Below, one piece after another: positions 6,753 to 35,851 of a stretch of 64,000 bases of DNA (positions within the stretch are counted from its first letter, which is position 1; each line of letters begins with the position of its first letter). The translations under genes were made by a program, and so were the position numbers. The stretch covers positions 1 to 64,000 of IMG/VR virus record IMGVR_UViG_3300002026_000014; one strand, 5' to 3'. The DNA comes from a virus. Taxonomy: Duplodnaviria; Caudoviricetes. The notes below the pieces were generated by a model. It was given only the letters and a program-made list of their open reading frames with translations. It did not search any database and had not been told where the DNA came from.

Positions 6753-7682
6753 TTAAATATAAAAATTTGGTGATTTGTTCTTTGTGGACATATCAGTACT
6801 TTGATAATGTATATCCATACCGATTATGTATGGCGCATTAGTGTATGCACTACCAGTTATACTTGGTATAATTGTCACCTCAAGTGAAAACAATATAAAA
6901 CCATCTATTTCTAAAATGTCAGTATTCAAAAGATTAGCTGATCCACCTTTACATGATAATTGAATCTCGTCGACACGGTGGAAATATTTAGGTGTATTTG
7001 TTATGTTTAAACCAGTGACGTCTATTGTGTTGAGTACATCTGGATGAAACGATGCCTGTTGGTGCCCTTTTGCATACGTCGAGCGAAGTTTTATTTGCAA
7101 TTCATTTGCTATTGCAGTTCCACTATGTGACCAATGAACATGTACAAATAAATCAGTGTGAGGTACATAATCGTGAGGTACGTGAAACCTTAAATCGCAC
7201 CTATCCCCAGCAGCATAAGCGTATTCGGTAATATAAGTGCTAGTGAATGGTTTCAATGTAGGTGCGAACGTACCTGTATTTCTTGGAGTCACATCACCTT
7301 CTTTATCTTTCCATCCAAACTGTGCTAAACCATATCCGCCGTTATAATACTCATAGTGTTGATTATTGTCCAATGTGATGTAATATTTACCGGTGTCACC
7401 AATTGTCGGCAACGCTGCTAAATTTGCATATGTCAAAAATTGATTAATGTGATTAGGTATTTGTGATACAGGTATTCTTCTATCACTGTCTAACTCAGCT
7501 ACTCCATTAGCCACACCTACTTTATTTAATTCAACGTACGTATTTGCTAAATCTTGATATTGAGGGTGCGCATCAATATCATTTTTATGTGCTAATATAG
7601 CAGCAGATAATTCAGCATCAGATGTTATATCATTCACACCCAATGTATCTAATTGTGTTGTATTTAATCTAGTTTTAGGCAT
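6753..7682 (-). CDS. Short tail/virion fibre protein
   Basis: HKNDIDAHPQY and VGVANGVAELDSDRRIPVSQIP fibre motifs; beta-rich C-terminus with FHVPHDY..HVHWSH. Confidence 0.6.
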   Translation of the reverse strand: MPKTRLNTTQLDTLGVNDITSDAELSAAILAHKNDIDAHPQYQDLANTYVELNKVGVANGVAELDSDRRIPVSQIPNHINQFLTYANLAALPTIGDTGKYYITLDNNQHYEYYNGGYGLAQFGWKDKEGDVTPRNTGTFAPTLKPFTSTYITEYAYAAGDRCDLRFHVPHDYVPHTDLFVHVHWSHSGTAIANELQIKLRSTYAKGHQQASFHPDVLNTIDVTGLNITNTPKYFHRVDEIQLSCKGGSANLLNTDILEIDGFILFSLEVTIIPSITGSAYTNAPYIIGMDIHYQSTDMSTKNKSPNFYI

Positions 7683-8055
7683 TTTTATTTACAATTAAAA
7701 TGTTATTGACATAATCAGCCACTGCTTTATCACTGATTTTCATATGGTCACTTATAGTGACACGTAACCCTTTTATTAAAGTTTCCTTTTCTAATATATT
7801 TAAATAACTACACGTTATTATTTTAGCTAACTCTTCTTTGAGCCTATTGTGAATTTGAATATGGTTATCCGTGGATGGATAGTTTATTAATCTCATAAAC
7901 TCTTCTTCATGTTCAAAATGTCTCAATATATGACTATATAGATTATTCAAATTTGAGGTTAAATTTTCCTCTTGATTTCTATCTAAACAGATAGATAAAA
8001 GATTAGTAATTTCATTATGCTCAATATGATTTTCTATTATTTTTGATAAATTCAT
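7675..8055 (-). CDS. Hemerythrin (single domain, di-iron)
   Basis: H..., HFEHEE, NYP, HIQIH, DHMKISD: complete hemerythrin ligand pattern. Confidence 0.9.
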   Translation of the reverse strand: MNLSKIIENHIEHNEITNLLSICLDRNQEENLTSNLNNLYSHILRHFEHEEEFMRLINYPSTDNHIQIHNRLKEELAKIITCSYLNILEKETLIKGLRVTISDHMKISDKAVADYVNNILIVNKNA

Positions 8056-8444
8056 TTTATTAATTTCTCATTTACATAATTACCAATTTGAAGATCGTGA
8101 TGATCAATGTGATCAAGCAATAATGCTTCTATTTTGCTAATTTCATATCTATTTTTTATAGCATCATTTGCGTTTACTATAAAGGATTTTCTGAAAGCTT
8201 CTAGCATATTAACATGTTGTCGAAAATGCTCACCTAAATATGGGTAATTTATAGAAAACATATAAGCTTCTTCATATTTCACATGTCTTGAAAACATTTC
8301 AAAGAAAGTATTAAAATCTTCAACGGTGCAAATATTACTAATTATTTTCGAATTAAGTTCTTCTAAACTCGAAAATAATACGTAATGTTCATAGTCTATT
8401 CTATCTATGTTTAATTTATAATTTTTTAAAATTTCTAGTTCCAT
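8052..8444 (-). CDS. Hemerythrin (probable start MELEIL at 8444, not TTG 8504)
   Basis: IDYEH, RHVKYEE, NYP, EHFRQH, DHIDHHD; AAGG before ATG 8444; TGA overlaps the ATG of the next hemerythrin. Confidence 0.9.
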   Translation of the reverse strand: MELEILKNYKLNIDRIDYEHYVLFSSLEELNSKIISNICTVEDFNTFFEMFSRHVKYEEAYMFSINYPYLGEHFRQHVNMLEAFRKSFIVNANDAIKNRYEISKIEALLLDHIDHHDLQIGNYVNEKLIK

Positions 8445-8516
8445 AGCAAACCTTTTTACATATATAGTTAAAACAGAATGCATTGAATTATTAGAAATAA
8501 TCAAATTATCGTGCCA

Positions 8517-8548
8517 TAATATCTAACATATTTCTATGTTAGATATTA
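8517..8548. terminator. 14-bp stem hairpin with TATG at its minus-strand end
   Basis: taatatctaacata-tttc-tatgttagatatta; cata at 8515-8518. Confidence 0.65.
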
Positions 8549-8555
8549 CGTCACT

Positions 8556-9437
8556 TTAAAAATTTCGTTCTCTCATCCACTTTGTCGCTATCCATTTTTC
8601 ACCTGAAATGACGGGATCACCTGAATGTAATGTGTTTACATCTAATTGTTTTGCATCATTTAAATATTCAAAATAAGCAGCCATTCCTTTTTTAGGTGTA
8701 ACTGATAATTTAACATTTGGAAACGTAGTGCATCCACCTTCCTCTACGTTATTCAAATACATTACCAGCGTACTAACACGTTGACCTGAATGAGCCAACA
8801 TGCCTTGCGAGCCAGGTGCCTTTTCATCAAAATAATCAAAATGTGCACGGTACTCACAATTTTGTTTATAACGCATTACTTGTATACCTTCACCTTTTTC
8901 TACTGGCCAATTCATTACTTGTGAGATTCTATTCTCTAGCATAGTTATGAAATCATTTTCTGATTTTGCGAAACAGGCACCATCGCTGGTTCTATGTGGA
9001 TGTATTTCATTCATACCGGTTTCTGCATTAACAGTAGCTGATCTTTGTAATTTACCACTTGCTAACTCTACTAATTTATCACATTCGTATTCGGACATGA
9101 AATTATCAAATACAGCTATTACAGGTTCTCTTAATCTAACAATCACATTGACATCTCTAGTGTCGGTATGTATGATGTTTCCGGATTGTGAAATTCGCGG
9201 TGTAGTATAAATATATTTATTATCAACGGGTGCATCTTTAATGGGTGCAGCTTTAGTCGATTGATTATACAAGTCCGCCGGATTACTTTTTATCTCTGCA
9301 ACAATTTGTTTTGCATACTCTAAAGAGAATCCGTTCTTAACCATCTCGGCTGCGATACCGTCATGATTACAACCTTTAAGTATATTTACCTTTATCCAAT
9401 CTCTTAAAGTTTCGTTTACCTGAGGTGTAGTATCCAT
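8556..9437 (-). CDS. Prolyl 4-hydroxylase, collagen-P4H type 2OG-Fe(II) dioxygenase
   Basis: EGIQVMRY...YRAHFDYF (HxD), RVSTLVMYLNNVEEGGCTTFP, TLHSGDPVISGEKWIATKW (distal His, 2OG-binding Lys). Confidence 0.92.
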   Translation of the reverse strand: MDTTPQVNETLRDWIKVNILKGCNHDGIAAEMVKNGFSLEYAKQIVAEIKSNPADLYNQSTKAAPIKDAPVDNKYIYTTPRISQSGNIIHTDTRDVNVIVRLREPVIAVFDNFMSEYECDKLVELASGKLQRSATVNAETGMNEIHPHRTSDGACFAKSENDFITMLENRISQVMNWPVEKGEGIQVMRYKQNCEYRAHFDYFDEKAPGSQGMLAHSGQRVSTLVMYLNNVEEGGCTTFPNVKLSVTPKKGMAAYFEYLNDAKQLDVNTLHSGDPVISGEKWIATKWMRERNF

Positions 9438-9485
9438 ATTTTACCTATGTTTAATTTATTCATAGAATAAATTAGACTTATAAAA

Positions 9486-19857: not shown

Positions 19858-19878
19858 ATGTTGTATAAAATAATAACT

Positions 19879-20415
19879 TTACGTTAGATTTGTTCCTGAA
19901 ATAATCCACTCAGTGGCTGTTATTTTAAGAGCAGTAGCTACACCGTTTGCAGCGAGCGTACGATTACCAGCAGTGCCAGCGCCTGCTAAACGCATAGTGT
20001 CAGAAGTGATTGCAATGGTGATAGCACCAGCAGCGTTGTGATTGACAAAAGTCAAAGCGGTACCGATTTCATAAGCAACAGCTGAATTCGCTGGGATCGT
20101 ATAAGTACGAGCAGTGGTGTCGGCTGATGGATGCAGAACATGTTTTCCTGCATCTGCTAATACACATGTATAGTCTGCTGATTTTGAATTTTGTGGAATA
20201 TTGTTAGTTCCACAATTTGCGATGTCAGCGGTAGTTAAAGTTACATTGCCGCTACGACCGGCGACCGATTGCACAGATGAAGTCAATAGATTGTTTATAT
20301 CGGCATCTATAGCAACCAATGCAGATTTAACTGCAGTGATGTCTTGAATGCGCTTATCGCTTGTGGTGCAACCGGGTAACTGAAACCCGCGATGTGCTGA
20401 ATTACTAGTTGGCAT
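19879..20415 (-). CDS. Short fibre/adaptor protein
   Basis: N-terminal RIQDITAVKSALVAIDA shared with the long fibre; SVQSVAGRSGNVTLT fibre repeat; C-terminal YTCVLADAGK..TIPANSAVAYEIGT..EWIISG module. Confidence 0.65.
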   Translation of the reverse strand: MPTSNSAHRGFQLPGCTTSDKRIQDITAVKSALVAIDADINNLLTSSVQSVAGRSGNVTLTTADIANCGTNNIPQNSKSADYTCVLADAGKHVLHPSADTTARTYTIPANSAVAYEIGTALTFVNHNAAGAITIAITSDTMRLAGAGTAGNRTLAANGVATALKITATEWIISGTNLT

Positions 20416-20470
20416 TTTAAAATCCTTAAAATATTGATTATTTTTTAACTAAACTAATAGTGATATGACA

Positions 20471-20502
20471 TAAAAATCCCTATTTCACAATAGGGATTTT
20501 TA
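20471..20502. terminator. 14-bp stem hairpin with TATG at its minus-strand end
   Basis: taaaaatccctatt-tcac-aatagggattttta; cata at 20469-20472. Confidence 0.75.
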
Positions 20503-20511
20503 TATTAATGT

Positions 20512-20640
20512 TTAGCGAAAATTACCTGCTATACGTGCTTGCAATTCAGCAGCAGCTTTCATTGCAGCAGCCATAGCTGCAAACGTTGCAAACATATCAC
20601 TTTGCGATTTAAGAATCGCGTCGATTTGCTCTTGTGTCAT
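20512..20640 (-). CDS. Unannotated 42-aa Ala-rich helical protein
   Basis: GGAG 8 nt before ATG; MTQEQIDAILKSQSDMFATFAAMAAAMKAAAELQARIAGNFR*; flanked by two inverted repeats. Confidence 0.7.
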   Translation of the reverse strand: MTQEQIDAILKSQSDMFATFAAMAAAMKAAAELQARIAGNFR

Positions 20641-20667
20641 TTTAAATACTCCATAAAAAAAGAAATG

Positions 20668-20699
20668 TCACACTCAGATTAATATTAATCTGAGTGTGA
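20668..20699. repeat. 32-bp perfect palindrome, no loop
   Basis: tcacactcagattaat|attaatctgagtgtga. Confidence 0.95.
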
Positions 20700-20722
20700 T
20701 ATCGAGGTTAGCTAATTACTAT

Positions 20723-20810
20723 TTAAGGCCAAGTTGCGTTAGCATCAGCCCAAACAATATCAGCGTCACCCCAAACTGCACCTAAACCAGAGGCTACACC
20801 ATCAACGAAA
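20723..20810 (-). other. Putative +1 programmed frameshift site (TTT_CGT_TGA) and 27-aa extension
   Basis: +1 frame reads F-VDGVASGLGAVWGDADIVWADANATWP* with Trp every 7 residues; that frame is closed by TGA just upstream and has no ATG/GTG/TTG. Confidence 0.6.
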
Positions 20811-21896: not shown

Positions 21897-22005
21897 TTTA
21901 TAAATTTCCTATAAAAACAAACACAAAAACATACTTAAAAATGGAATTATTTAAAAGTACGCAACCGATTAATTTGGTATAAACACAAATTGATGTTGTA
22001 TTATA

Positions 22006-22698
22006 TCAAACAGTGTAACTCACCACCATATTATCTGTCATATCCAAAACCAAAGAATTATTAGTCCAGTTTAAAACATTGTTGTTTATTGTGTAATCAT
22101 GAATTTCTCCATAAGCATACGTTAAACCATTGACTGTTAAAATTGAATTCTCTTTGTCTAATGGCATATGATTCAGATTAAAAACCATTTGTCCATTTTC
22201 AGTCACTGGAAGTTGAGTAGTGATTTTACTGGCAGCTACCGGTAAACCATTACTCAACTTATCCATAATATTTATAATGTCGTTTAGCATCGCTGCTAAA
22301 GTACTACCACTATAAACGTCAGGGTAGACATTATCTACTGCTGGTATTGCTAATTTTAAATTTGGTGTGGTTTGAGACACCAAACAAAATGTACTGTTAG
22401 TAGGTAAATCTATTTCCTCTTCCAAACTATCCCAAAGAATAGTGCCAGATATCCTCACAGTATCTATGTATTCTAAACTCGTAAATACATATCTGTTTGT
22501 AACACCTACCACACCCATGAATGTGTTTTTATCTGTGGCGGGTACATATATAACAAACCCTAAGGCAATGTCGTAAGCACCATTACCTGTAAAATCTGTT
22601 TGATTATTGAAGAGAGCATTCTCGAATGTATATTCACCAGGGTTTCCCGTAGGCGTAAATGAATCTACATAAAGAGCGCCATTTACAATTCTGGCCAT
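22006..22698 (-). CDS. Putative virion protein with C-terminal beta module
   Basis: C-terminal GQMVFNL...LTVNGL.YAYG..HDYTI...MVVSYTV. Confidence 0.55.
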   Translation of the reverse strand: MARIVNGALYVDSFTPTGNPGEYTFENALFNNQTDFTGNGAYDIALGFVIYVPATDKNTFMGVVGVTNRYVFTSLEYIDTVRISGTILWDSLEEEIDLPTNSTFCLVSQTTPNLKLAIPAVDNVYPDVYSGSTLAAMLNDIINIMDKLSNGLPVAASKITTQLPVTENGQMVFNLNHMPLDKENSILTVNGLTYAYGEIHDYTINNNVLNWTNNSLVLDMTDNMVVSYTV

Positions 22699-22713
22699 TG
22701 GAATTTCCTTTTG

Positions 22714-25700
22714 TTAGAATTGCAACATCATAATAATACCTGTAGTAGCCGCTGGTAATATATTAAATTGGAAAGTTGAATAACCCGCTCCAGCATTATT
22801 CATGTATAATGTATTACCAACCATTGCTAATGTATCGGAATCTTGTCTTACTTGTTGCAGTGGTAAATAAACAGTATCATTACTAATGTTATCACCACCA
22901 CCATTAATACTAGATGCAGGCACAGTAATTACATACGTGGTACCTGTTCTAACATTTGCTTTCAAGTGAATTCTCATTGATAACAATGTTAAATCACAAT
23001 TAGCTGGCGCTGATAATACACCTGATCCTATATTTACCGTAGTTGAATTATGCGCATATGTGAAACCATTAAGATAAGCACATTCTGCACCACTAGTGCC
23101 ACCGGTATCAACGCAATTTACACTGTAAGTATCGGTCGTCACATTAATGATAAGTGCTGATAAATAATTCGTATTTGTATTTCTAACAATGACCCTATTT
23201 CCTACAACTCTTCCATGTCCAGGATGAGTAATTGTTAAAACTGTACCAGTTCTACTCCAAGCTAAATTAGCAAATACAGTCGAAGAAGAAACTACCCATA
23301 CTGCTAACCCTGGAGTTGGTTCTGCTAAATATCTTGCTGTATTGTTGTATAAACTCATGTTAGTGACAGTACCGCCACCGGTTCCAGGTATACCTTGTAT
23401 ACCCTGAATACCTTGTGGACCTGCTGGGCCAGTTAAACCAATAGGGCCTTGAGGACCTGGTACGTTGCTAACACCATCAGCTCCTGCTGGACCTGCTGGA
23501 CCTTGAGGTCCTATTGCACCATCGGTACCTGCAGGACCCTGAGGTCCGGGTACTGTACTATCAGCACCAGTGGCACCAGTAGGGCCTGCTGGACCAGTTA
23601 AACCAATAGGGCCCTGTGGTCCTGGTACGTTGCTAACACCATCAGCACCAGTTAAACCTTGAGGTCCTTGTATACCTTGGGGTCCAGCTGGACCAGTAGC
23701 ACCATCTGCACCAGCAGGACCTTGAGGACCAGCAGGACCAACTTCACCTTGAGGACCAGCAGGACCAGTTAGACCTTGAATACCTTGCGGTCCTGCTACT
23801 GTACTATCTGCACCTGCAGGACCTGTTAAACCAATAGGTCCTTGTGGACCTTCAGCACCCGCAGGTCCAGTAAGACCTGTATCGCCTTTAGGACCTGTGG
23901 CACCCATATCACCTGTAACACCTGCAGGACCCTGCAAACCTTGAGGACCTGTTAAACCTGGACTACCATCTGCTCCAGCAGGACCTTGAATACCCTGTGG
24001 GCCAGTGAGTCCCGTATCGCCCTTAGGTCCTTGCACGCCAGGTGTACCTTGCACGCCATCTGCTCCAGCAGCACCAGCATTACCTTGAGGACCTGTCAAA
24101 CCTTGTACACCTTGAGGACCTTGTGAACCTGTATTACCAGTTAAGCCTTGAATACCTTGTGGACCTTGAGGTCCTGGTACTGTTGATTCTGGACCTGTTA
24201 AACCAGTTGCACCTGTTAAACCCTGAGGGCCTTGATCACCAGTATCGCCTTTAGGACCTTGTGGACCAACTGAACCTTGTAGGCCTTGAGGACCTTCAAT
24301 GCCTTGAATACCTTGAGGACCTTGTGGGCCTGCTGGACCTGGTATATCACTAACACCATCAGCACCAGCTAAACCTTGAGGTCCTTGAATGCCTTGTGGA
24401 CCTGCTGGACCTTGTGGTCCCATTGGACCTTCTACAGTACTATCAGCACCTGTTAAGCCTTGAATACCTTGAGGACCTTCAGGTCCTGGTAACCCTTGAG
24501 GACCCATAGGTCCTGCTACTGTACTATCTGCACCTGCGGGTCCTTGGATACCTTGTAACCCTTGTGGACCAGTTGGTCCGGCTACTGTACTATCTGCGCC
24601 AGCTGGACCTTGAGGACCTGCAGGTCCCTCTGGACCTATTGCTCCATCAGCGCCAGCTGGACCTGTAAGTCCTTGAATGCCTTGTGGACCTGCTGGTCCC
24701 GCAGGACCCATCAATCCCTCTGGACCTTGAGGACCTACTGGTCCCGGTGAGCCAGCAACACCATCAGCGCCAGCAGGACCTACTGGACCTGTAGCACCTT
24801 GTGGACCCGGTGGTCCGTCAGCGCCAGCTACACCTGCATAACCTGTTAAACCTTGGATACCTTGAGGGCCAGAAGCACCTATTGCGCCAGCAGGTCCGGG
24901 AACTGTTGAATCAGCGCCAGTGGCACCAGTAGGACCTGCTGGACCCATGGGTCCCATAGGACCCGTTAAACCTTGAGGACCGGCTACAGTGCTATCTGCA
25001 CCTTGAGGACCCTGGGGACCAGCTGGACCAACAGGTCCTTGTATACCTTCAGGTCCATCTATACCTTGGTCACCTTTAGGTCCCACTGGACCCATTAATC
25101 CTTCAGGACCTTGAGGACCTGTTAAGCCTTGTGGACCAGCTACTGTGCTATCTGCACCTGCTGGTCCCTGAGGACCTTCTGGACCGGTGAGGCCTTGAGA
25201 TCCAGTATCGCCTTTAAGTCCTTGTGGTCCGATTGGACCTTGAGGACCAGCAGGACCATTTGCGCCAGCTGGACCTGGGGATCCAGTTAAGCCTTGAGGA
25301 CCTTGAGGACCTGTAGGTCCAGTATTACCTGTCAGGCCAGGAATACCTTGAGGTCCGGGTACTGTACTAGCGGCGCCAGTGGCACCAACAGGTCCAGTTA
25401 AACCAATAGGACCTTGATTACCTTGAGCGCCTTGAGCACCAGTTAAACCAGTGTCTCCTTTTAAACCTACATTACCTTGAGGACCTGCAGGACCCATAGG
25501 GCCAACAGGACCAACAGGACCCATCGGTCCAACTTCACCTTGAGGACCGTCGGCGCCAGTTAAACCAGTGTTACCTTGAATACCTTGTAAACCTTGGATA
25601 CCACGAGGACCTTGAGGGCCTATGCCAGTAATAGAAGATCCGATAGCTGGCATCTCTACCCATTGGCTAGGCTGGAATTGATCTGTAGTTAGGAATGGTA

Positions 25701-26019
25701 CTGAAGCTGGATCTGCTCTATAAGGAATGTCTTCATAGAAGACGGTAAATAGATCATCATTGACCTGTAAATCTTTTTCGAAGTATACGGGTACGTTATA
25801 ACCAGTAGGTTTAATACCAGAAGCTACTGATACTAAATTCATAAAGTCATAAACCGTCATCACCTGTCCACCTGGACCGCCTAAGGTGTGACCAATGGCT
25901 TTACTACCTACTGGGCTATCTAATTGGATTTCTTTTACTGACAGACCGTCTGAGAAATCTATTGGTAATCTATCCTTTGCTCTAAAAATAACTGGGGTTG
26001 TATCGATTGGTTTTTTCAT
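22714..26019 (-). CDS. Collagen-like fibre protein
   Basis: (Gly-X-Y)n from 25620 to ~23380 (~750 aa) with periodic interruptions; globular N- and C-termini (ITHPGHG..VGNRVIV). Confidence 0.93.
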
Positions 26020-26068
26020 TAATTTCTCCTAGATTCAAAGTATGTATTAAGTAGTTAAATTTTTCGAC

Positions 26069-26110
26069 ATAAATGGTACAATAGATCATTACGACCTATT
26101 GTACCGTTAT
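26069..26110. terminator. Imperfect hairpin with TATG at its minus-strand end, upstream of the collagen gene
   Basis: ggtacaatag...ctattgtacc core; cata at 26068-26071. Confidence 0.55.
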
Positions 26111-26188
26111 GATTATTTCATCATTTTTTAAATGATGATTGCTCAAATCAATTCAGTAAATAATCGTTATTTACTTCACATATGATAT

Positions 26189-27901
26189 TCAAACATATTG
26201 CCCGGTATTATCTATAAAATATAAAGGAATACCTGCTACTGCTAATTGCAAATCATTTGTCGATGTTCTAATAAAGAATTGTACGAACAAAGTAGAGTTA
26301 TTTGTAAATGTTCCATCTAGTAATAAATCTTTATTCCAACTACTCATTGGAAATTCTTTATAAGCACCATTCACAATTAATGAAAAATGTGTTGGCATTG
26401 GAGGAAGTTCATCATGATAACTATCCAGTAAAGGAAGTGTCTTGTAATAAAGTTTCTCAAGCCAGACATCGAAAGTTGGTATAGCACTATCTATTCTTAA
26501 CAACCAGTCATTTGTGTTTCTAAATAATGCTTTAGCGTATACACCTAAACCGTATTTAGGTACTTGGTCAGGAGAGTAGCCTACGCACCAATTATCTAAT
26601 CTTTCAGTACCTTGTTTATTTAAAACAATATCGATTGTTTGAACGTGTATGTAGTTCTTGTATGAAGCATCTGCGTTTCTGATATTCAAAGACACATTGA
26701 GCTTTTGTACAGTACCATATTTAATTGGGTTAAAAGACCCGTAAATTGGATTAATGGTTACATACGGTGTTACGTTGTATCTAATATTTCTATTAAGATT
26801 ATACATAAACCATTCTAACGCATAACCGTTTACAGAATCTACCCAAACAGGGTAACCAAACAATTTAATATTGTAACTGCCATCAGCCATCAATGTATAA
26901 GCTTCGTATGTTTCAGATATATGTTTTTCACTACCGACAGTGGATACATAATTATACTCAGTGGGACCTAGTGAGTATTTTAATACCACTTTAATTTTCT
27001 GATCAGGTAAAGTAGCCACATATTGGTCAAAACCGAATATTGAAAACTTACTACCATCTACCGGATATTCTACCACTTCACCGTTACTATAATTCACAAC
27101 ACCTATTAAGTTTAAGCCGTTGAGCGGTACGTTAATAGGGTAGGCTATGACTTTGTAATTGTTAGGACTAATGAATGGCGATTTAAGTGAGATACCAATA
27201 ATGTATTTTGCTGCAGCATCTACTGCTCTAATGAAAGATGTGTTCTCTACCAATAGCTGTCTTTTAGATACCACGAATCCAGCATCGTCATAGAAGACAG
27301 CAGTCACTAATTCACCGTCTAAAAGATCGACGTTGGTGTAGCATGGTGTCACAATTTTAATTGTCTTGTTATCTAGCAAATGATTAGCTGCAAGTTCTAA
27401 TGGAATATTCTCACTTAAAAGATTTCCACTTGAGTCATACATGCGGCTAATCACATTGCCACTGTCCGATAACAAAGCGCCTTTAAATATTTTAGCCCAT
27501 CTACACATGGTGCCGGCCACCATCAACCTATGGTCCACATCTAAGCGATAAGGTATGACAGATTTATCTATGTATACACGATAAGTGTCGCTTTGTGTTC
27601 CAGGTCCTACACCATACAAAATATCATCGTTAGTGAGATTGTTAGTAGGGTTAACTACATCTTCTTCACGGAATTTAGGAATTAATGTTGTTAAACTAAT
27701 GTCTTCCACAATGTATTTTGTTATCTTGGTTCCAATAATCTCAAATACAACGTCATTTATTTTTGGAACATATTTATTTGAAGCTACATCACCTAAATAT
27801 ATTTCATCCATATTCCATATTTGCCAGCGTCTATCTGCGTTATAAATAGGCGATACATTATCCGTGCCGATAACTCCGCCTGTACTAATTGGATTTGGCA
27901 T
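26189..27901 (-). CDS. Conserved phiKZ-like virion structural protein (gp26-like)
   Basis: Position in the terL / gp26-28 / sheath / tube order; WNMDEIY..KYVPKIND motif. Confidence 0.65.
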   Translation of the reverse strand: MPNPISTGGVIGTDNVSPIYNADRRWQIWNMDEIYLGDVASNKYVPKINDVVFEIIGTKITKYIVEDISLTTLIPKFREEDVVNPTNNLTNDDILYGVGPGTQSDTYRVYIDKSVIPYRLDVDHRLMVAGTMCRWAKIFKGALLSDSGNVISRMYDSSGNLLSENIPLELAANHLLDNKTIKIVTPCYTNVDLLDGELVTAVFYDDAGFVVSKRQLLVENTSFIRAVDAAAKYIIGISLKSPFISPNNYKVIAYPINVPLNGLNLIGVVNYSNGEVVEYPVDGSKFSIFGFDQYVATLPDQKIKVVLKYSLGPTEYNYVSTVGSEKHISETYEAYTLMADGSYNIKLFGYPVWVDSVNGYALEWFMYNLNRNIRYNVTPYVTINPIYGSFNPIKYGTVQKLNVSLNIRNADASYKNYIHVQTIDIVLNKQGTERLDNWCVGYSPDQVPKYGLGVYAKALFRNTNDWLLRIDSAIPTFDVWLEKLYYKTLPLLDSYHDELPPMPTHFSLIVNGAYKEFPMSSWNKDLLLDGTFTNNSTLFVQFFIRTSTNDLQLAVAGIPLYFIDNTGQYV

Positions 27902-27916
27902 ATTTTTTCCTTAATT

Positions 27917-30487
27917 TTAAACAATTAATACGCTAGCAGATAAATCAATTAAATCTCTGCAATATAGTTTTACAACTCTATTTAGAAAAACATATTGTTG
28001 TGCATTTATGCTAACTGTATCATTTAAATGATGAGGGTGAATTCTTATAAAGTCACGATTAGATTCATTATCAACATAAGTGGGATCTAATTTAATTAAT
28101 GATAAATAAGGAGCAATTAAAGTTCTTAATTGATCGTCATTATATTGTGTTTGAAATAACGGACTATCTAAAATACCATGTTTTAAATCAAATAATATCT
28201 TACATATAAAAGGACTAAATACGTTATGATAATCTAATATTGGATTTAATGTTACAGGTTCAACTTCTGGTATTTTAATAGTCAAATAATCAGAAATCTT
28301 TTTGTCAACATCTATTGATAATTTCTTATAGTCGTAAACATCTCTTTTAACAATACTTTTAATGGGTGCTATCGTATCTTTGATGAGATACGGGTAACCG
28401 TTCATTTTATCAAATAAATTAAAATTGGGATTATTTTCGTTAAATTGTAATTCTTCTCTTAAGTAGATACTACCTTTGATAAAAATACTAATGACTTTAT
28501 CATCTCTGATATTGTAAATTTTATTATTTGAAACTACATCGTTTCTTATGAAACCAAATTCATAAGGTTTAGTTTTATTTAATTGTTTATCACACAATCC
28601 GGAAAATCTAATTACTACTTCTTGATCTTTGGTGATAGGATCACCTTTGAAATAATCTTTAGTAGTGATTACTACTCTTGGAAAATCTAAGTAGTAATCT
28701 AAATTTTCTATTAAATAATGTCCGTTTAGGAAAATGTCTAACTCACCCATTGGGATTTGCATTTTACTACTGACATATTCATTGTTTACTTGTTCTACTG
28801 TATTTATATTAAATTCAAATAACCCATCGGTTACCATTGTCTTAAATGTATACAAGTAAAACTTTTTGTTACTTCTGATCATTGTCTCATTTGTATTACC
28901 AATTGCCCATACAGCAGTAGGGCCCTGTATTGAAGGATAGATTGTGTAAAATGAAGTACCAGTGACGTCCATCCAGGTTAATGTGCTTGTATTTGATGCA
29001 GCCTGTTTTACATAAAAACGATAATCGTAGTTTGGGTTAATAACGACACGTGCTTTGTTATGATATTCATCTATCATCGATGCGCCGACACCGTGAAAAA
29101 ACTCCACGTATTTGCATTTTATCGAAACACAATTATAGAGCTCATCACCTGTGTGGATATAGTAACCTAATAATAAACCGTTCTCATCATACTCAAACGC
29201 AGTACTGTCATACTCATAAAAGAAAGGCACTTGAGCAATCAATTGCCCACTAAACATAAATGTTTTTACAGGTGAATCTACTATTAACTTACTAACTGCA
29301 TTATACCCATAAGCATCAGTAATTAAACCGGTGGTTACATTAACATATTTCTCACCCATTAATTTCACATAGGGTGAATTTTCTAAAATTGGTGCTCTCC
29401 AATTATCTACCGTAGAATCTAAACCTAACATTGCTCTATTAACATCGTTATCAGTTAACTTATAGAGTTCTTTAATTCTATTGTGTTCATTTACAAAATT
29501 ACGTAAATAGCCAGCATTTCTTATATGCAGTCTAATGTAAGATTCCGATTTACTTAAAATGGTAGGGTGATTTTCTATATAACTAACTACATGGCTCACT
29601 GGAATAGAATAATCTTTATGAGTTACCATTCTAAATGAATCATCTGTGTTTTTATGATATCTCACACCTTTTTGTTTTACAGAATCTATTACAAATAAAT
29701 CAATATCGTCTCTATAGTCAATAGTTGTACCCATTCCTATATCGGTATAATGTAGAAGATATTTGCCTTTGGTATCTAAAACCGAATCAAATGTAGATAA
29801 TGTATTGATTCTAAAATCAACTATTAATTTAATAGATGAATCAAATACATATTCAACTGAATCACCTACTTTAACAACTGTTGGGTCTAAAGATTTAACT
29901 TTAAAACCATTGCAGTAAGCATATACTCCACCTGTCTCCAGTGACCGGGCAATGAAATTATCATTGATGTTATATATGTCATCCATAGAAGTTATTGTTT
30001 TGCCTTCTACGAATATAGTATTATTTACACTACTTTGAGCTATTTTGTTAAAGTATGCATTTTTATATAATCTGATATAAACATCTTGCGTCACTGGTGA
30101 AAATGGTATATTCTTATTTTCACTTACAGCTATTAAAACATTTCTTTCTTCAGTGATTATATAATAAGTTTCAGTTCTAAGTAATTCGATACCATTATTT
30201 AAATATATATCACATATAACACTATTAAGAATACATACATCCGATAATAAAACCCATGATTCTAATTTAGGAAATAAATTAACTAATAATGGATGCACTT
30301 GTCCAATTTGATATAAGTGATATTTTTGATTCTTTTTAGGTAATGTAAAATGATTCCACATTAATGTCCAACTATTAAATACACCGAAGTTTGGTGAAAT
30401 TCTAGTTGGTTTTAAAATGATTTGATTGTCTTGTTCTGGGCTACACCATACATTTTTTAATGCATGGTCTAATAGAAAATCAGTCAT
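27917..30487 (-). CDS. Conserved phiKZ-like virion structural protein (gp27-like)
   Basis: N-terminal FLLDHALKNVWCSPEQD; 856 aa; synteny. Confidence 0.7.
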   Translation of the reverse strand: MTDFLLDHALKNVWCSPEQDNQIILKPTRISPNFGVFNSWTLMWNHFTLPKKNQKYHLYQIGQVHPLLVNLFPKLESWVLLSDVCILNSVICDIYLNNGIELLRTETYYIITEERNVLIAVSENKNIPFSPVTQDVYIRLYKNAYFNKIAQSSVNNTIFVEGKTITSMDDIYNINDNFIARSLETGGVYAYCNGFKVKSLDPTVVKVGDSVEYVFDSSIKLIVDFRINTLSTFDSVLDTKGKYLLHYTDIGMGTTIDYRDDIDLFVIDSVKQKGVRYHKNTDDSFRMVTHKDYSIPVSHVVSYIENHPTILSKSESYIRLHIRNAGYLRNFVNEHNRIKELYKLTDNDVNRAMLGLDSTVDNWRAPILENSPYVKLMGEKYVNVTTGLITDAYGYNAVSKLIVDSPVKTFMFSGQLIAQVPFFYEYDSTAFEYDENGLLLGYYIHTGDELYNCVSIKCKYVEFFHGVGASMIDEYHNKARVVINPNYDYRFYVKQAASNTSTLTWMDVTGTSFYTIYPSIQGPTAVWAIGNTNETMIRSNKKFYLYTFKTMVTDGLFEFNINTVEQVNNEYVSSKMQIPMGELDIFLNGHYLIENLDYYLDFPRVVITTKDYFKGDPITKDQEVVIRFSGLCDKQLNKTKPYEFGFIRNDVVSNNKIYNIRDDKVISIFIKGSIYLREELQFNENNPNFNLFDKMNGYPYLIKDTIAPIKSIVKRDVYDYKKLSIDVDKKISDYLTIKIPEVEPVTLNPILDYHNVFSPFICKILFDLKHGILDSPLFQTQYNDDQLRTLIAPYLSLIKLDPTYVDNESNRDFIRIHPHHLNDTVSINAQQYVFLNRVVKLYCRDLIDLSASVLIV

Positions 30488-30508
30488 TACGACCCTTTCA
30501 AAAATTAT

Positions 30509-31468
30509 TTATTCATTATTTATATTTTTAAATAACAAATCTTTATCTAAAATGGAATCGATTGATTTTATAAAATTATCACCTATTCCACCTTTTGCAA
30601 ATCTCTCCACTAATTTAGCCAGCACTGATCTTTTAAAAGTGGCCTCATTCAATGACGCGTAACAAATCATAAGCCATGTAGGTATGTGTTCTAAACCGAC
30701 TGCTAAATTTTCACGTGCATTGTTACCGAACCAATTACCACTAACTACTGCTAAAAGCACACCGACATTAAAATCTTCTAGTCTGATGCTTTTTGTTTTC
30801 ATTTTGAAAGCTTCACACATTTCATCTAATGAATTCAGAACTTTCATATCTTCAATGATATCAAACACTTTTGTGGCTGGTATTTTAGTAGCACGAGATA
30901 TATTTGCAGAGATTTTATTTAGATCGCTTTCATTAAAATCTTTATCATCAGTAAATAAACAATAATAATAAAAACATGAAACAACTGCAATGATAATTTG
31001 CTCACCGGTATCTAAGGCATACTTTCTGGAAACACATTCACTTATTAACGCAGCATACGCTGACGCAGGTAACAAGGAGACGTCTCTTAAAATCTCGATT
31101 CTCTCATTTACCCACATATAGTTTAGAGCGGCGCGCATTATATTCCAACTATATTCTGGATCATTGCGTACCATGAATTTTGATTGAGGAGCGTACCATT
31201 TACCAAAATTACGTACATCTACTAAAACACTTAAAGGCTCTTCAGTGTTGTTAAAAACAATGGGATGATTAAAATAAGGAATGACATCTGCAGTAGAGTT
31301 TCCACCTTCAACCAGATTTAATATGAAAGCAGAATCATAATTAGTCAGCTTAACATTCACTGATCTTAAAGAACTATTTAACATAGCTACTTTTAATTTA
31401 TCAGTTGTTTCCTTAATCCTATAGCCCGAGCATGCTGTAGCATCGTAAGCTGTTTTAAATATTGACAT
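30509..31468 (-). CDS. Conserved phiKZ-like virion protein (gp28-like)
   Basis: MSIFKTAYDATAC; WFG.NARENLAVGLEHIPTW; divergent from the sheath gene. Confidence 0.65.
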   Translation of the reverse strand: MSIFKTAYDATACSGYRIKETTDKLKVAMLNSSLRSVNVKLTNYDSAFILNLVEGGNSTADVIPYFNHPIVFNNTEEPLSVLVDVRNFGKWYAPQSKFMVRNDPEYSWNIMRAALNYMWVNERIEILRDVSLLPASAYAALISECVSRKYALDTGEQIIIAVVSCFYYYCLFTDDKDFNESDLNKISANISRATKIPATKVFDIIEDMKVLNSLDEMCEAFKMKTKSIRLEDFNVGVLLAVVSGNWFGNNARENLAVGLEHIPTWLMICYASLNEATFKRSVLAKLVERFAKGGIGDNFIKSIDSILDKDLLFKNINNE

Positions 31469-31666
31469 TTTTTACTCCATTTAAATTAAATTTTCTGACT
31501 TAATGAATATAATGGCACAATTGTATGCCACATGTATAACAGTTCAAATATGATATTTTGCACTTAGGAGTCAGCACATGAAACGCCTTATTTTAAATCT
31601 AATTTAATAGATTAAAAATATTTTTAATAAAACCCCTAGATTACCATTTTTAAGGATTGATTTAAT

Positions 31667-33859
31667 ATGTCACAAAATACTATCGTCAATGCAGCGCCTA
31701 TGACAATTTTGAGAGGTACTCAAGACCTTTCAATCCGTACGCCACTCATTGAACCAGATGTACTTCCAACGCACTTACCTAAAGTGTATATCTACGCGCA
31801 AAAAGGCCCTACATCACCTCAATTGGTGGTAGGTAATTCGCGTAACCAAATGTATGGTGACGACACTTTTGATATGCGCAAACCTTTTGCAACGCATCAA
31901 ACCCAGTTATCAAATGTAATTAATGCAAAAGGTAACGCTCAAATGATTGAGCGTATTCTACCAGATGATGTTTATTTTAAATCTAATTTACTATTGTCTT
32001 TAGATGTGCTCAACACGATGGTGCCTGTTTATACTAGAAATACAGACGGCACTTACATGTTAGATGTTGATGGTTTGAAGATTCCATCAGGCGCTACTGT
32101 TCCAGGTTACATTTGTAAATGGGTGGTCACCACTCCAGAATACAATGATTATAACTCTAATGTTGCGTCACCTGCATTCGCATCAGTCAATACTAAGATT
32201 GGCACTCAAGTGGGTGTGGATCCAGTAACTTCATTAGCAAATACATCTTTACTGTATCCAATTATTCGTTTAGAAGCATCGTCTTTCGGTTCTTACTTTA
32301 ACAATACTGGTATTCGTCTGTGGGCACCAAATTCAGACACAGGTATCAACACCACTGTAATGTCATCATTAGGTGTGTATCCGTTTAGAATTGCAGTGAT
32401 TCGTCGCACTAGTGCTACAAACACGCCTACAATCGTTCCTACTGAGTATAATGAAGGTTCTGTTGACTTTACTTTCAAACCTGGCCAGATTAATCCAGCC
32501 ACAGATGCAGCATATTCATTAGGCGATATATTCTTAGACCGTTATCAAAATCTGAAAGATACGCGTTTCCCTATTAAGTTAGGTGATTTTGGCCGTATGC
32601 ATATCTTCCAAAATAACATCGATCTAATAACAAAACAGTTCTATGATGCTGAAATGGCATTTGGTCAGAATCTAACAGATTTAGCTGCAACAAACACAAA
32701 CAGTTCACTGTTTAACTTTATCAATGGTAAGAATTCAGATGGTGTACCTTATCATTCTTATGTAATGAATAGTGGTGGCGTGAATTTAACTGAAAATACT
32801 AATCTGTTTGCAGGTTTAGGATTTGACGGAACAATGTACGAAGCTCCTGTAACTGGTGCAGCATTAGTTGCATTGAAGAACACAATTGCTACATCTGGTT
32901 CACCATGGACCGATCCAGTTAACATGCCTCCATGTTTTGCTGATTTAGTAGCTGACAGAGTTCTGCAGTACGGAGATCCTAACAGCATGTTTATGGATAC
33001 TGCTACTTATCCAGAATCTATCATTTACGATTCAGGTTTTCCTTTGAAGACTAAATATGCATTATGCAAATTTATTTCAGAAAGAAAAGACACAGCAGTA
33101 GTGTTATCTACTTACGATGTTAACGGTGCGCCTATGACAGCGTCTGAGGAACACTCTGTAGCTGTAGCACTTCGCACACGTTTACAAATGTATCCTGAAA
33201 GCGACTACTTTGGTACATCCACAATGCGTGGCATGATCATTGGTCGCTACGGTGAAATGCGCAATAGTCAATACATTAAGAAATTACCTTTGACACTTGA
33301 AATTGCATCTAAGGCATCAGCAATGATGGGTGCAGGCGATGGTATCTGGAAAACAGAAATGTTGTTTGATCGTGCACCTAACAGTGAAGTCGATATGTTT
33401 GACAACGTGAATGTAACATTCACACCTGCTTCTGTTCGTAACAAAGACTGGGAAGTTGGTCTTAACTGGGTTCAATCATTCTCAAGGAAGAATCTATTCT
33501 TCCCTGCTTTGAAAACCGTTTACGACAATGATACATCAGTACTGAATAGTTTCTTTACAATGATGGCATGTGTGGAATTACAAAAGGTTGGCGAGCAAGC
33601 ATGGAGACAATTCTCTGGCAGTGTGGCTCTTACCAATGGACAACTAATGGATAGAGTCAACACGTTCGTTGAACAACGTACTATTGGTCGTTTTGCTGGA
33701 ATGTACAAGATTGTACCTGCTGCTTACATGACAGATGCAGATTTGATGCGTGGTTTCTCTTGGACGTTACCAATTAAGATTTACGCAAACAATATGAAGA
33801 CAGTCATGACTCTACAGGTCCAAGCTTACAGAATGACCGATTACACTGAAGTTGTTTAA
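31667..33859 (+). CDS. Tail sheath protein (phiKZ gp29-like)
   Basis: NAAPM..LRGTQDLS..PTHLPKVYIYAQKGP; YDSGF; C-terminal FSWTLPIKIYANNMKTV. Confidence 0.88.
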   Translation: MSQNTIVNAAPMTILRGTQDLSIRTPLIEPDVLPTHLPKVYIYAQKGPTSPQLVVGNSRNQMYGDDTFDMRKPFATHQTQLSNVINAKGNAQMIERILPDDVYFKSNLLLSLDVLNTMVPVYTRNTDGTYMLDVDGLKIPSGATVPGYICKWVVTTPEYNDYNSNVASPAFASVNTKIGTQVGVDPVTSLANTSLLYPIIRLEASSFGSYFNNTGIRLWAPNSDTGINTTVMSSLGVYPFRIAVIRRTSATNTPTIVPTEYNEGSVDFTFKPGQINPATDAAYSLGDIFLDRYQNLKDTRFPIKLGDFGRMHIFQNNIDLITKQFYDAEMAFGQNLTDLAATNTNSSLFNFINGKNSDGVPYHSYVMNSGGVNLTENTNLFAGLGFDGTMYEAPVTGAALVALKNTIATSGSPWTDPVNMPPCFADLVADRVLQYGDPNSMFMDTATYPESIIYDSGFPLKTKYALCKFISERKDTAVVLSTYDVNGAPMTASEEHSVAVALRTRLQMYPESDYFGTSTMRGMIIGRYGEMRNSQYIKKLPLTLEIASKASAMMGAGDGIWKTEMLFDRAPNSEVDMFDNVNVTFTPASVRNKDWEVGLNWVQSFSRKNLFFPALKTVYDNDTSVLNSFFTMMACVELQKVGEQAWRQFSGSVALTNGQLMDRVNTFVEQRTIGRFAGMYKIVPAAYMTDADLMRGFSWTLPIKIYANNMKTVMTLQVQAYRMTDYTEVV

Positions 33860-33879
33860 ATAAAATTAAACTAAACAGA

Positions 33880-33911
33880 TATACGTGCACTTAAATTTAA
33901 GTGCACGTATA
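33880..33911. repeat. 32-bp perfect palindrome between sheath and tube genes
   Basis: tatacgtgcacttaaa|tttaagtgcacgtata. Confidence 0.95.
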
Positions 33912-33940
33912 AAACCATTTTATAGAAAAGAGAATTAATT

Positions 33941-34810
33941 ATGTCTAGACTTGCTGAAGCAATTTTATCAGGTGCTTACTCGAAAGGTCGAGCACCTATG
34001 ACTGACCTGCAATATGGTGGTCAAAATGGTTATGCGCCTAATTTAGCAGAATGGGTGAGTAACACGCATTATGTTCGTCGTAACTTAGTGTGCATTCTTA
34101 TCGAAGCACCAAAAGGTTTTCAGTTACTAAAAGAACCTAATTTCTGGGTTAATGCACTGAAAGCTATGGTTGAAGTTCATGCAAAATCTATTGATGGTTT
34201 TGCACAAGGCTTGGAAGTTGAAGTTCAAGAAACTGCAGTTTCTGGTGGTGGCGAGATGATGCAAGATTATTCGAACATTACACGTGCTCGCACTAATCCT
34301 TCATTTGCGTTTGTGGACATGTATGGTCGTCCAATTCAGAACTTCTTACATGACTGGATTATCAATTTGATTGGTGACCCTGATAGTAAGATCCCTGCAA
34401 TCAGTACAATGGAAGGCGTTAAGCCTAAGGATCTATTAGCTGATATGTATTCTGCTACAATGTTATTCTTCGAACCAGATCCAACACATACTAAAGTAGC
34501 TAAAGCATGGCTCACTACTAACATGTATCCAAAGGGCACTGGCGAGATCACTGGTAAGCGTGATTTGACAGTTGCAGGCGAACTATCTGAACTCACAGTT
34601 GAGTTTACTGGTTTATCACAAAGTGGTTTAGGTGTTATTAGTTTTGCCCAGGCACTACTTGATAAGATCAACATCACTAACGCTAATCCGTTTGCACGTA
34701 CAGCATTTGTTCAGAAAATTGATTCCGACGTGGCTAACACTGGCGTTAAAGAATCTTCTGGCTACAAAGAAGGCGCTGAAACTCTAGGTAAACAAGCTCT
34801 TAGAGTTTAA
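33941..34810 (+). CDS. Tail tube protein (phiKZ gp30-like)
   Basis: DLQYGGQNGYAPNLAEWVSNTHYVRRNL; YSATMLFFEPDP; follows the sheath gene. Confidence 0.88.
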   Translation: MSRLAEAILSGAYSKGRAPMTDLQYGGQNGYAPNLAEWVSNTHYVRRNLVCILIEAPKGFQLLKEPNFWVNALKAMVEVHAKSIDGFAQGLEVEVQETAVSGGGEMMQDYSNITRARTNPSFAFVDMYGRPIQNFLHDWIINLIGDPDSKIPAISTMEGVKPKDLLADMYSATMLFFEPDPTHTKVAKAWLTTNMYPKGTGEITGKRDLTVAGELSELTVEFTGLSQSGLGVISFAQALLDKINITNANPFARTAFVQKIDSDVANTGVKESSGYKEGAETLGKQALRV

Positions 34811-34823
34811 TAAAAACTAAACA

Positions 34824-34861
34824 AATATTAGCCTCTACTTGGAAAAGTAGAGGCTAATATT
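34824..34861. terminator. 17-bp stem hairpin after the tube gene
   Basis: aatattagcctctactt-ggaa-aagtagaggctaatatt. Confidence 0.8.
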
Positions 34862-34888
34862 CTGTAATTTTATTATTAGGAGATTATC

Positions 34889-35851
34889 ATAGATAAAACT
34901 ATATTTGTCAGTGTGGCATCTTACAATGACCCATTACTGTTTTTTACAATTAATGAAATTATAACTAAAGCAAGAAACCCTGGAAATATTATTGTTGCAG
35001 TTATAGATCAAAACTATCACGATCAAAGAAGTAAAATAAACAAGTTAGAGTATTCTAAACAAATACGCTACATGTATGTAAACCTCATAGATACTTTAGG
35101 TGTTAGTTGGGCTAGAAATTTAGCATTTTCATTATACGATGACGAAACTTATTTTTTACAAATAGATGCACATACTGCATTTGATTCAGATTGGGACATT
35201 GAATTAATCAACCAACATACCGAATTATTAGAGTTATCTAAAAAACCAATAATTTCCAGTTTTCCAAATGATTTTGATATTATAAATGGCGAACCTGTTT
35301 GTAAAAGAGATTTAAGTAGAAGTGTTGCTATAGTAACTAGACCTATACCTGAACAAAAATTAAAAATAAATAATCCAATTCTTTTAATTAGCGGTCAATT
35401 GGTTCGCTCTAAAACTTCTAAATTAGCCTGTCATATAGCTGGTGGATTTGTTTTTTGCAGTGGAAAATATATAGAAGAATTACCGTACGATCCATACATG
35501 TATTTTTCAGGTGAAGAACAAAGCATTGCTGCTAGAGCTTACACACATGGCTGGGATATATACCACACTGTTTATACACCGATTTATCATAAATACAAAG
35601 TCAATAGTGCTAAATATTCAAGTCAACATTGGTATGGCGATTTTAAAGACAATAGATCAATTACATATGAGAGATTATTATCGAGGTCTAGAAAAAGATT
35701 AACTAGATTGTTATATGGTGACGGAATGCCCGACAGTGTATATGGTTTAGGTAAAGTCCGTACACTGGAAGATTTTGCATCAATGTGCGGAATTAACTAT
35801 AAAAAAAGAACAATTACTGGCGTGTTCATAGGTGACCACATGGGTTTATGA
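34889..35851 (+). CDS. GT60-family (Gnt1/GlcNAc-type) glycosyltransferase; probable non-AUG start near 34889
   Basis: TIFVSVASYNDP, GVSWARN, YFLQIDAH..FDSDWD, IAGGFVF, PYDPYMYFSGEE..AARAYTHGWDIY; AGGAG at 34878-34882, in-frame TAG at 34877. Confidence 0.85.
   Translation: MDKTIFVSVASYNDPLLFFTINEIITKARNPGNIIVAVIDQNYHDQRSKINKLEYSKQIRYMYVNLIDTLGVSWARNLAFSLYDDETYFLQIDAHTAFDSDWDIELINQHTELLELSKKPIISSFPNDFDIINGEPVCKRDLSRSVAIVTRPIPEQKLKINNPILLISGQLVRSKTSKLACHIAGGFVFCSGKYIEELPYDPYMYFSGEEQSIAARAYTHGWDIYHTVYTPIYHKYKVNSAKYSSQHWYGDFKDNRSITYERLLSRSRKRLTRLLYGDGMPDSVYGLGKVRTLEDFASMCGINYKKRTITGVFIGDHMGL

Follow-up and report, generated by a model that had tools for sequence, protein, structure and literature searches.

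The DNA analysed here (the window) comprises positions 1–64,000 of a virus record in IMG/VR (IMGVR_UViG_3300002026_000014), which is 80.7 kb long and has an estimated completeness of ∼30%. In and beside a tail-fibre gene island it carries a prolyl 4-hydroxylase (P4H) gene, three hemerythrin genes (Hr1, Hr2 and Hr3), a gene for a long collagen-like fibre protein and a gene for a glycosyltransferase of family GT60. The record encodes a set of phiKZ-type virion proteins (the gp28 vertex protein, the gp29 sheath, the tube protein, DUF7193 and the phrog_3430 virion protein), by which the phage is assigned to the phiKZ-like chimalliviruses (Chimalliviridae, the nucleus-forming jumbo phages); a large terminase gene is also present, and chimallin is not encoded in this fragment. 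The best isolated relatives are jumbo phages of Burkholderia, Ralstonia and Xanthomonas, and since amino acid identity in DUF7193 is only ∼37%, the phage belongs to a deep, uncultured branch of the chimalliviruses. The public sequencing runs listed as containing the stretch are metagenomes of microbial mats, with no RNA run among them, and a mat run from a second study has pieces identical to it. An earlier note on this DNA had proposed a collagen-type P4H flanked by three hemerythrins, a strand-coherent fibre island with a collagen of ∼750 residues and a GT60 enzyme encoded after the tail tube gene. The identities of the genes and the coherence of the island were borne out, and the arrangement around the P4H gene required amendment.

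The P4H gene (8556–9437, minus strand) encodes 293 amino acids, comprising an N-terminal four-helix bundle (residues 9–60), a disordered linker and a double-stranded beta-helix catalytic domain. An AlphaFold model (pLDDT, the predicted local distance difference test score, 89) shows the same catalytic domain, with the bundle attached through the disordered linker. The protein scored 53.9 bits against PF13640 (cut-off 27). Its best match in the PDB, over residues 84–290, was the Bacillus anthracis P4H (3itq/5hv0, E = 5.5e-54), and further matches were Chlamydomonas P4H-1, the catalytic domain of human C-P4H-II, the vCPH enzyme of PBCV-1 and P4H-TM. This PDB search returned solely collagen-type P4Hs, with no enzyme of the hypoxia-inducible factor (HIF), prolyl hydroxylase domain (PHD) or PPHD type at E 0.01. 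The HxD...H triad for Fe(II) and the 2-oxoglutarate-binding lysine (H199, D201, H271 and K281) show no variation among 32 homologues and align with the corresponding residues of the B. anthracis enzyme. The phage protein, whose activity is predicted, thus resembles that single-subunit bacterial-type enzyme in its catalytic domain, but has the additional N-terminal bundle, is virus-encoded and lies in a tail-fibre module. The closest full-length homologues, ∼50% identical, are encoded on betaproteobacterial chromosomes (Rhodoferax, Chitinolyticbacter, Silvimonas, Iodobacter and Paraburkholderia) and share the bundle. Searching IMG/VR with the P4H gave three small contigs only, 49% identical and without hemerythrin or collagen neighbours. 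No second O2-dependent enzyme was found in the 80.7-kb record.

All three hemerythrin genes are present on the minus strand, but they do not flank the P4H gene evenly: two lie directly downstream, and one lies upstream beyond an open reading frame (ORF) of 261 codons. Hr3 (124 aa, 10294–10668) is the upstream copy. Hr2 (130 aa, 8052–8444) overlaps Hr1 (126 aa, 7675–8055) at an ATGA. Hr1 in turn shares 8 nt with the gene after it, and its product is 43% identical to that of Hr3. The Hr2 start is the ATG at 8444 and not the TTG at 8504, the 130-aa form being the one on record. The seven di-iron ligands (H, HxxxE, HxxxH, HxxxxD) are invariant in all three proteins. Profile scores were 26.9, 25.2 and 22.0 for PF01814 (cut-off 25.3), 52.0, 51.2 and 48.3 for TIGR02481 (cut-off 51.75) and 38–50 for the bacteriohemerythrin model NF033749 (cut-off 84), and we class Hr1–Hr3 as divergent, domain-level members of the hemerythrin family. 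A profile built from the three sequences matched myohemerythrin, DcrH-Hr, hemerythrin and McHr in the PDB, the best matches being O2-binding types. A word-based search of 5.8 billion proteins with Hr3 found Hr3 itself only, tblastn of Hr3 against isolated phages gave no match, and none of the PHROG families matches any of the three. The nearest hemerythrins found anywhere by profile search are tandem proteins of four or five domains (549–710 aa, P0247–P0251), at most ∼30–34% identical. The two tandem-hemerythrin contexts that were read (P0247 and P0248, loci L034 and L035) are bacterial chromosomes and no phage was identified there; in each, the tandem gene adjoins a gene of the DNA_alkylation-repair family. 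An origin of the three hemerythrins as fragments of a captured tandem gene was considered and rejected, as identity is at most 34% and none of them maps to a distinct domain.

Every gene between 4454 and 26019 lies on the minus strand. This 21.6-kb block is placed between the terminase gene and a conserved gene for a 570-aa virion protein; the only isolated relative checked for this adjacency, Xanthomonas phage LucasX, has no such block, its terminase gene coming directly after the 570-aa virion gene. The block is therefore taken to be an accessory fibre island. Besides the P4H, hemerythrin and collagen genes it holds genes for three beta-propeller paralogues, an S74 fibre and a C92 amidase, and several genes of no assigned function. 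A recurrent element is seen at the borders of its units, consisting of a long perfect hairpin followed immediately by T-rich sequence and TATG, which is presumably the phiKZ late-promoter motif. One copy lies upstream of Hr3 (10762–10803, minus strand; −41.6 kcal/mol), and the next strong hairpin lies after the P4H gene, between it and Hr2 (8516–8553, minus strand; −29.5 kcal/mol); similar elements precede the collagen and S74 fibre genes (∼26070–26110 and ∼17500–17545). These elements look like combined terminator and late-promoter signals. The flanking hairpins suggest that Hr3, the 261-codon ORF (ORF261) and the P4H gene, in that order, are probably a single transcription unit. Hr2 and Hr1 head the following unit, overlapping each other and five downstream genes by a few bases. 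From the shared elements we infer late co-expression of the Hr3–ORF261–P4H unit with the collagen and S74 fibre genes. A scan for sigma-70 promoters gave no excess over shuffled sequence, as expected for a chimallivirus. Zero-difference Logan contigs, among the contigs of four mat runs, span the P4H–ORF261–Hr3 junctions and Hr1 with its next gene; the gene order is thus not the artefact of a single assembler.

The collagen-like fibre protein (22714–26019, minus strand; 1101 aa) consists of an N-terminal segment of 133 residues, a 749-aa Gly-X-Y domain and a C-terminal globular domain of ∼220 residues. It scored 318 bits against PF01391, in 12 stretches. The Gly-X-Y domain (residues 134–882) contains 220 triplets in 14 runs, separated by 13 regular interruptions, or kinks, of the form GADSTV(A/P)G or GVS(N/D)(V/I)PG. 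All 13 kinks bear Ser or Thr, and 10 of them have the S-T-V motif. Proline occupies the X position in half of the triplets (110/220) and threonine the Y position in 43. The domain has 15 X-Pro-Gly sites, 7 at kinks.

The GT60 gene (34880–35851, plus strand) directly follows the gene for the tail tube protein (PF23806; 33941–34810, plus strand). Its product matches PF11397 at 149.6 bits (cut-off 21) over profile positions 92–349, and carries the sequence QIDAHTAF, in which the DxD-like DAH is what we take to be the motif of the GT60 family; a sequence search against solved structures gave no match. The ORF was listed from a GTG at 34913. However, upstream of that codon the frame encodes IIIDKTIFVS, which makes up the first beta-strand of the fold and recurs unchanged in a related phage, R, described below. 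The frame is closed by a TAG at 34877–79, and an AGGAG lies at 34878–82; the start is therefore probably a non-canonical ATT, ATC or ATA (34883–34891). The only Pro/Thr linker of the 80.7-kb record occurs in a 5′-truncated ORF at the left end of the window (2–2068, plus strand; 688 aa seen), which encodes repeated Ig-like modules. The linker (∼nt 1520–1710) has three copies of PPTTTY and two of PPATTS, and is a candidate target for the P4H and the GT60 on a par with the collagen. A locus that may serve mucin-type glycosylation in bacteria was met in a Campylobacterales genome (L027:1-2199): a GT60 homologue is divergently transcribed from a gene for a (TAPTEAPTQAP)n protein, and the gene of a large GT2/GT21-type synthase comes next. 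In phages XacN1 (L019:5977-9694) and RAS14 (L020:5728-9545) the GT60 domain is part of a 457–478-aa protein; the gene that follows is annotated as a carbamoyltransferase in XacN1, and its syntenic counterpart in RAS14 is unannotated.

Phage R was recovered from one Logan run. Its structural proteins are 78–91% identical to those of the present phage in amino acid sequence, the collagen ortholog being 78% identical, and its GT60 is 61% identical. One contig of R carries, in the order seen here, the genes for the collagen, the 570-aa protein, DUF7193, gp28, the sheath, the tube and the GT60, and a small ORF. In the same run, another contig has an S74 tail fibre gene, then the P4H gene (54% identical product), a 51-aa remnant ORF, the C92 amidase gene (75% identical product) and finally a further S74 fibre gene. 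At the DNA level the two P4H genes are 69% identical and the adjoining neighbour gene 74% identical. In R a fibre gene lies upstream of the P4H gene, and the hairpin–TATG element after it leads straight into the counterpart of the gene located after Hr1 in the window. The 51-aa ORF (L029:2205-2410) is a composite: the N-terminal 44 residues of the 6753–7682 gene product are joined, with a shift of frame, to the final 27 of the 5599–6054 gene product. It looks like the scar of a ∼2-kb deletion in R. In a maximum-likelihood tree the P4Hs of the two phages are sisters (support 99/94), and the P4H of a third chimallivirus (L032:10001-10669; 222 aa, without the N-terminal bundle) is next (97/96); all three are on long branches, which brings some risk of long-branch attraction. 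By gene content and order, the P4H, the collagen and the GT60 form a conserved fibre-module set in the phage and R, to which the hemerythrins read as a lineage-specific, later addition.

Co-occurrence of the four gene types was surveyed in 14 complete genomes of isolated phages using four Pfam models, the genomes having been picked by similarity searches and not at random. None of the 14 had a hemerythrin, and five had a PF13640 enzyme. Collagen repeats were found in 4 of the 5 genomes with the PF13640 enzyme versus 2 of the 9 without it. Three of the four phages with both P4H and collagen carry the same collagen gene set and so represent one lineage; the co-occurrence is suggestive and not significant.

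The account that best covers the whole is that the P4H and the GT60 modify the fibres and the hemerythrins buffer O2 for hydroxylation in a hypoxic mat; we offer it as a tentative account, a little short of evenly balanced. The P4H would be a long-standing resident of the accessory tail-fibre island, and its most likely activity would be to hydroxylate prolines in fibre proteins of this phage while they are still unassembled in the cytoplasm. We lean, if slightly, towards regarding it as an enzyme of the fibre module with Pro-rich structural proteins of the phage as its substrates. Its targets would be the X-Pro-Gly sites at the collagen kinks, possibly prolines at the X position, and the PPTTTY/PPATTS linker; for the B. 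anthracis P4H, hydroxylation of (PPG)n is documented at X as well as at Y (PMC8968730). The GT60 would most likely add an N-acetylhexosamine (HexNAc) to Thr, or to hydroxyproline (Hyp), in Pro/Thr-rich segments, and may act independently of the P4H; as to whether it decorates virion proteins, our judgement is evenly divided. Hr3 would be made from the unit that it probably shares with the P4H, and Hr2 and Hr1 from the head of the next unit, in which the genes overlap tightly. As predicted O2 binders of the classical di-iron kind, the hemerythrins would most plausibly capture and buffer O2, and the buffered O2 would keep hydroxylation going when the mat is hypoxic. This role is inferred from the gene order, the probably shared transcription unit and the microbial-mat origin, and the placing of two separate hemerythrin cassettes next to the sole O2-dependent enzyme found in the record favours a link to the P4H. 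That the hemerythrins serve the P4H by O2 capture and buffering as the mat turns hypoxic seems to us possible, with doubt prevailing. The full chain, in which phage-encoded O2 carriers feed virion-fibre hydroxylation and HexNAc glycosylation follows or accompanies it, is unlikely as a whole.

Several observations weigh against one part or another of this account. The collagen is a poor canonical P4H substrate because Pro seldom occupies the Y position (8 of the 220 triplets in the present phage, 4 of 210 in the R ortholog); so low a content is usual among bacterial collagens whose stability does not depend on Hyp. The proposal of the earlier note that the phage hydroxylates and glycosylates its own fibres is supported in part by the P4H, collagen and GT60 genes in or beside the fibre module and by their retention in R, but is weakened by the composition of the collagen. 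No hemerythrin gene lies on either side of the P4H gene in R, as far as that locus extends, so the P4H as an enzyme does not need a hemerythrin. In the third chimallivirus the P4H gene has a divergent DNA polymerase gene on one side and the chimallin gene on the other, at a distance from fibre genes and with no hemerythrin within 10 kb; the genomic setting of the P4H is therefore not fixed within this phage group. The betaproteobacterial homologues also occur in unrelated contexts, with neither collagen nor hemerythrin nearby. In the survey, GT60 was found in 2 of 14 genomes, those of XacN1 and RAS14, both without P4H or collagen. The XacN1 GT60 block lies near annotated DNA polymerase and RNase H genes, with RAS14 syntenic, a setting that suggests a role other than virion decoration. 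As for linkage of all four gene types across phages, P4H, collagen and GT60 stay together in R, but hemerythrins are missing beside its P4H and GT60 stands alone in XacN1 and RAS14. Finally, the island is an accessory-gene hot spot, and adjacency within it may mean a permissive site and not a shared function.

The suggestion of a relay, in which the GT60 would glycosylate the Hyp made by the P4H, found weak support. The Skp1 pathway of Dictyostelium and Toxoplasma, with PhyA and Gnt1, and the trypanosome GT60 mucin N-acetylglucosamine (GlcNAc) transferases resemble the present case in that a P4H and a PF11397/GT60 enzyme with DAH occur in one genome. However, PhyA is a HIF-type PHD whereas the phage enzyme is a collagen-type P4H, there is no Skp1, and the phage genes are 25 kb apart on opposite strands and so lack the linkage that a relay of this kind would lead one to look for. 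The GT60-bearing phages XacN1 and RAS14 have no P4H, and the isolated phages with a P4H have no GT60, the two occurring together only in the present phage and R. That the GT60 acts on Hyp produced by the phage's P4H is decidedly improbable. An alternative for this enzyme is mucin-type O-glycosylation of Thr, in Pro/Thr linkers and at the Y positions and kinks of the collagen, independently of proline hydroxylation. The absence of P4H from XacN1 and RAS14 agrees with this, as do the PPTTTY/PPATTS linker in the window and the 43 Y-position threonines and 13 Ser/Thr-bearing kinks of the collagen; as for the Campylobacterales homologue, its location beside a Thr-Pro repeat protein is explained by mucin-type glycosylation of Thr no less well than by a Hyp relay. 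Yet the acceptor residue cannot be read from sequence, and P4H and GT60 have both been kept in two related phages, so that we regard Thr glycosylation without hydroxylation as possible and lean towards doubting it.

The remaining rivals concern the P4H and its hemerythrin neighbours. These may be unlinked accessory genes of a hot spot, with the hemerythrins as general O2/redox host-takeover genes without a special tie to the P4H, which might sustain host respiration in hypoxia, scavenge O2 or shield the O2-sensitive enzymes of a microaerophilic host. Such a view accommodates the lack of hemerythrins at the P4H locus of R, the character of the island as a 21.6-kb accessory insertion and the translational coupling of Hr2–Hr1 to the downstream genes and not to the P4H; it leaves unexplained why two separate cassettes adjoin the one O2-dependent enzyme found in 80.7 kb, and why the unit that the hairpins delimit, with the P4H gene at its end, includes Hr3, and we consider it rather unlikely. 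The P4H might also modify a cytoplasmic host or phage protein that is not part of the virion, for example a translation factor, like PPHD on EF-Tu. The location of its relative in the third chimallivirus beside DNA polymerase and chimallin genes points this way, as do the cellular homologues without a collagen neighbour and the PF13640 enzymes among the early or replication genes of Erwinia phages Y3 and Yoloswag and of phage Sen-NF. Its sequence, however, groups with the P4Hs of collagen, plants and algal viruses and not with PHD/PPHD, and its gene sits inside the fibre module of two related phages, which makes a non-virion target improbable in our estimate. Lastly, the hemerythrins could serve the P4H otherwise than by O2 supply, as a store or donor of Fe(II) or as a protection against the oxidative damage that uncoupled turnover causes. 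The P4H requires Fe(II), and it is general knowledge that hemerythrin folds have various iron and redox roles; the closest structural relatives by sequence are nonetheless O2-binding proteins and not of the RIC/YtfE type, and we hold this to be highly improbable.

Virus-encoded P4Hs with Pro-rich or collagen-like substrates are familiar from algal and amoebal viruses. PBCV-1, whose vCPH (5c5t) was matched at E = 1e-18, encodes Pro-rich or collagen-like proteins together with a modifying hydroxylase, and Mimivirus, with its collagen-modifying enzymes, likewise combines collagen-like proteins with its own hydroxylase. Those are viruses of eukaryotes, whereas here a bacteriophage has hemerythrins and a GT60 alongside. 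For the hemerythrins, the nearest functional precedent is the bacteriohemerythrin of the methanotrophs Methylococcus capsulatus and Methylomonas, which has been proposed to deliver O2 to methane monooxygenase (PMC12607906). The two cases share a di-iron hemerythrin with a single domain, an O2-consuming enzyme encoded together with it and an organism that lives where O2 is low, but the sequence is distant (4xpx, E = 2e-3), and in the phage the partner would be a 2-oxoglutarate oxygenase, the genes are viral, there are three diverged copies and the role is predicted. Glycosylation of a phage's own structural proteins by its own glycosyltransferases is described for mycobacteriophage Che8 and its relatives (PMC11256854, citing Freeman et al. 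2023); that system differs in glycosyltransferase family, hosts and targets (the C-termini of the capsid and tail tube proteins), and involves no hydroxylase or O2 binder.

A literature search returned no paper on hemerythrins in jumbo phages, nothing relevant on P4H in jumbo phages or on a phage P4H acting on phage collagen, no description of Hyp on phage virions or of the combination of P4H, hemerythrin, collagen and GT60, and no virus-encoded O2 carrier dedicated to a biosynthetic enzyme. What is new is the pairing of P4H and hemerythrins, together with collagen and GT60 within the same chimallivirus. To our knowledge, the textbook view is that prokaryotic collagens are unhydroxylated and that phage virions are rarely modified post-translationally; a phage with its own collagen-type hydroxylase, protein glycosyltransferase and putative O2-binding proteins in a fibre module bears on both points. 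If the hemerythrins do serve the P4H, O2 would be a limit on virion maturation in low-O2 habitats that phages counter, and fully modified virions could be built during the hypoxic phases of a microbial mat. A compact single-subunit P4H paired with an O2 carrier would then also be of practical interest for hydroxylated recombinant collagen.

Two further genes of the island deserve mention. ORF261 (9486–10271, minus strand), between Hr3 and the P4H gene, encodes a Gly-rich and probably beta-rich protein with no match among Pfam or PHROG profiles and tailspike- or hyaluronidase-like leads only. The S74 fibre gene (14813–17473, minus strand) encodes a tail fibre of 886 residues whose C-terminal part is an S74 intramolecular chaperone domain. 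No close relatives were found by searching IMG/VR with the DUF7193 protein, Hr3 or the alignment of the three hemerythrins, megablast of 7000–12000 against isolated phages gave no match, and the contigs of the four mat runs included no relative that covers the hemerythrin–P4H stretch. Diverged variants do occur in the mats: a contig of ∼83% identity and higher depth covers 11141–11770, and many alternative joints lie within the propeller paralogues and the collagen repeats (15900–16100, 17900–19200 and 23400–25900), which points to co-existing related phages and recombination in their fibre genes.

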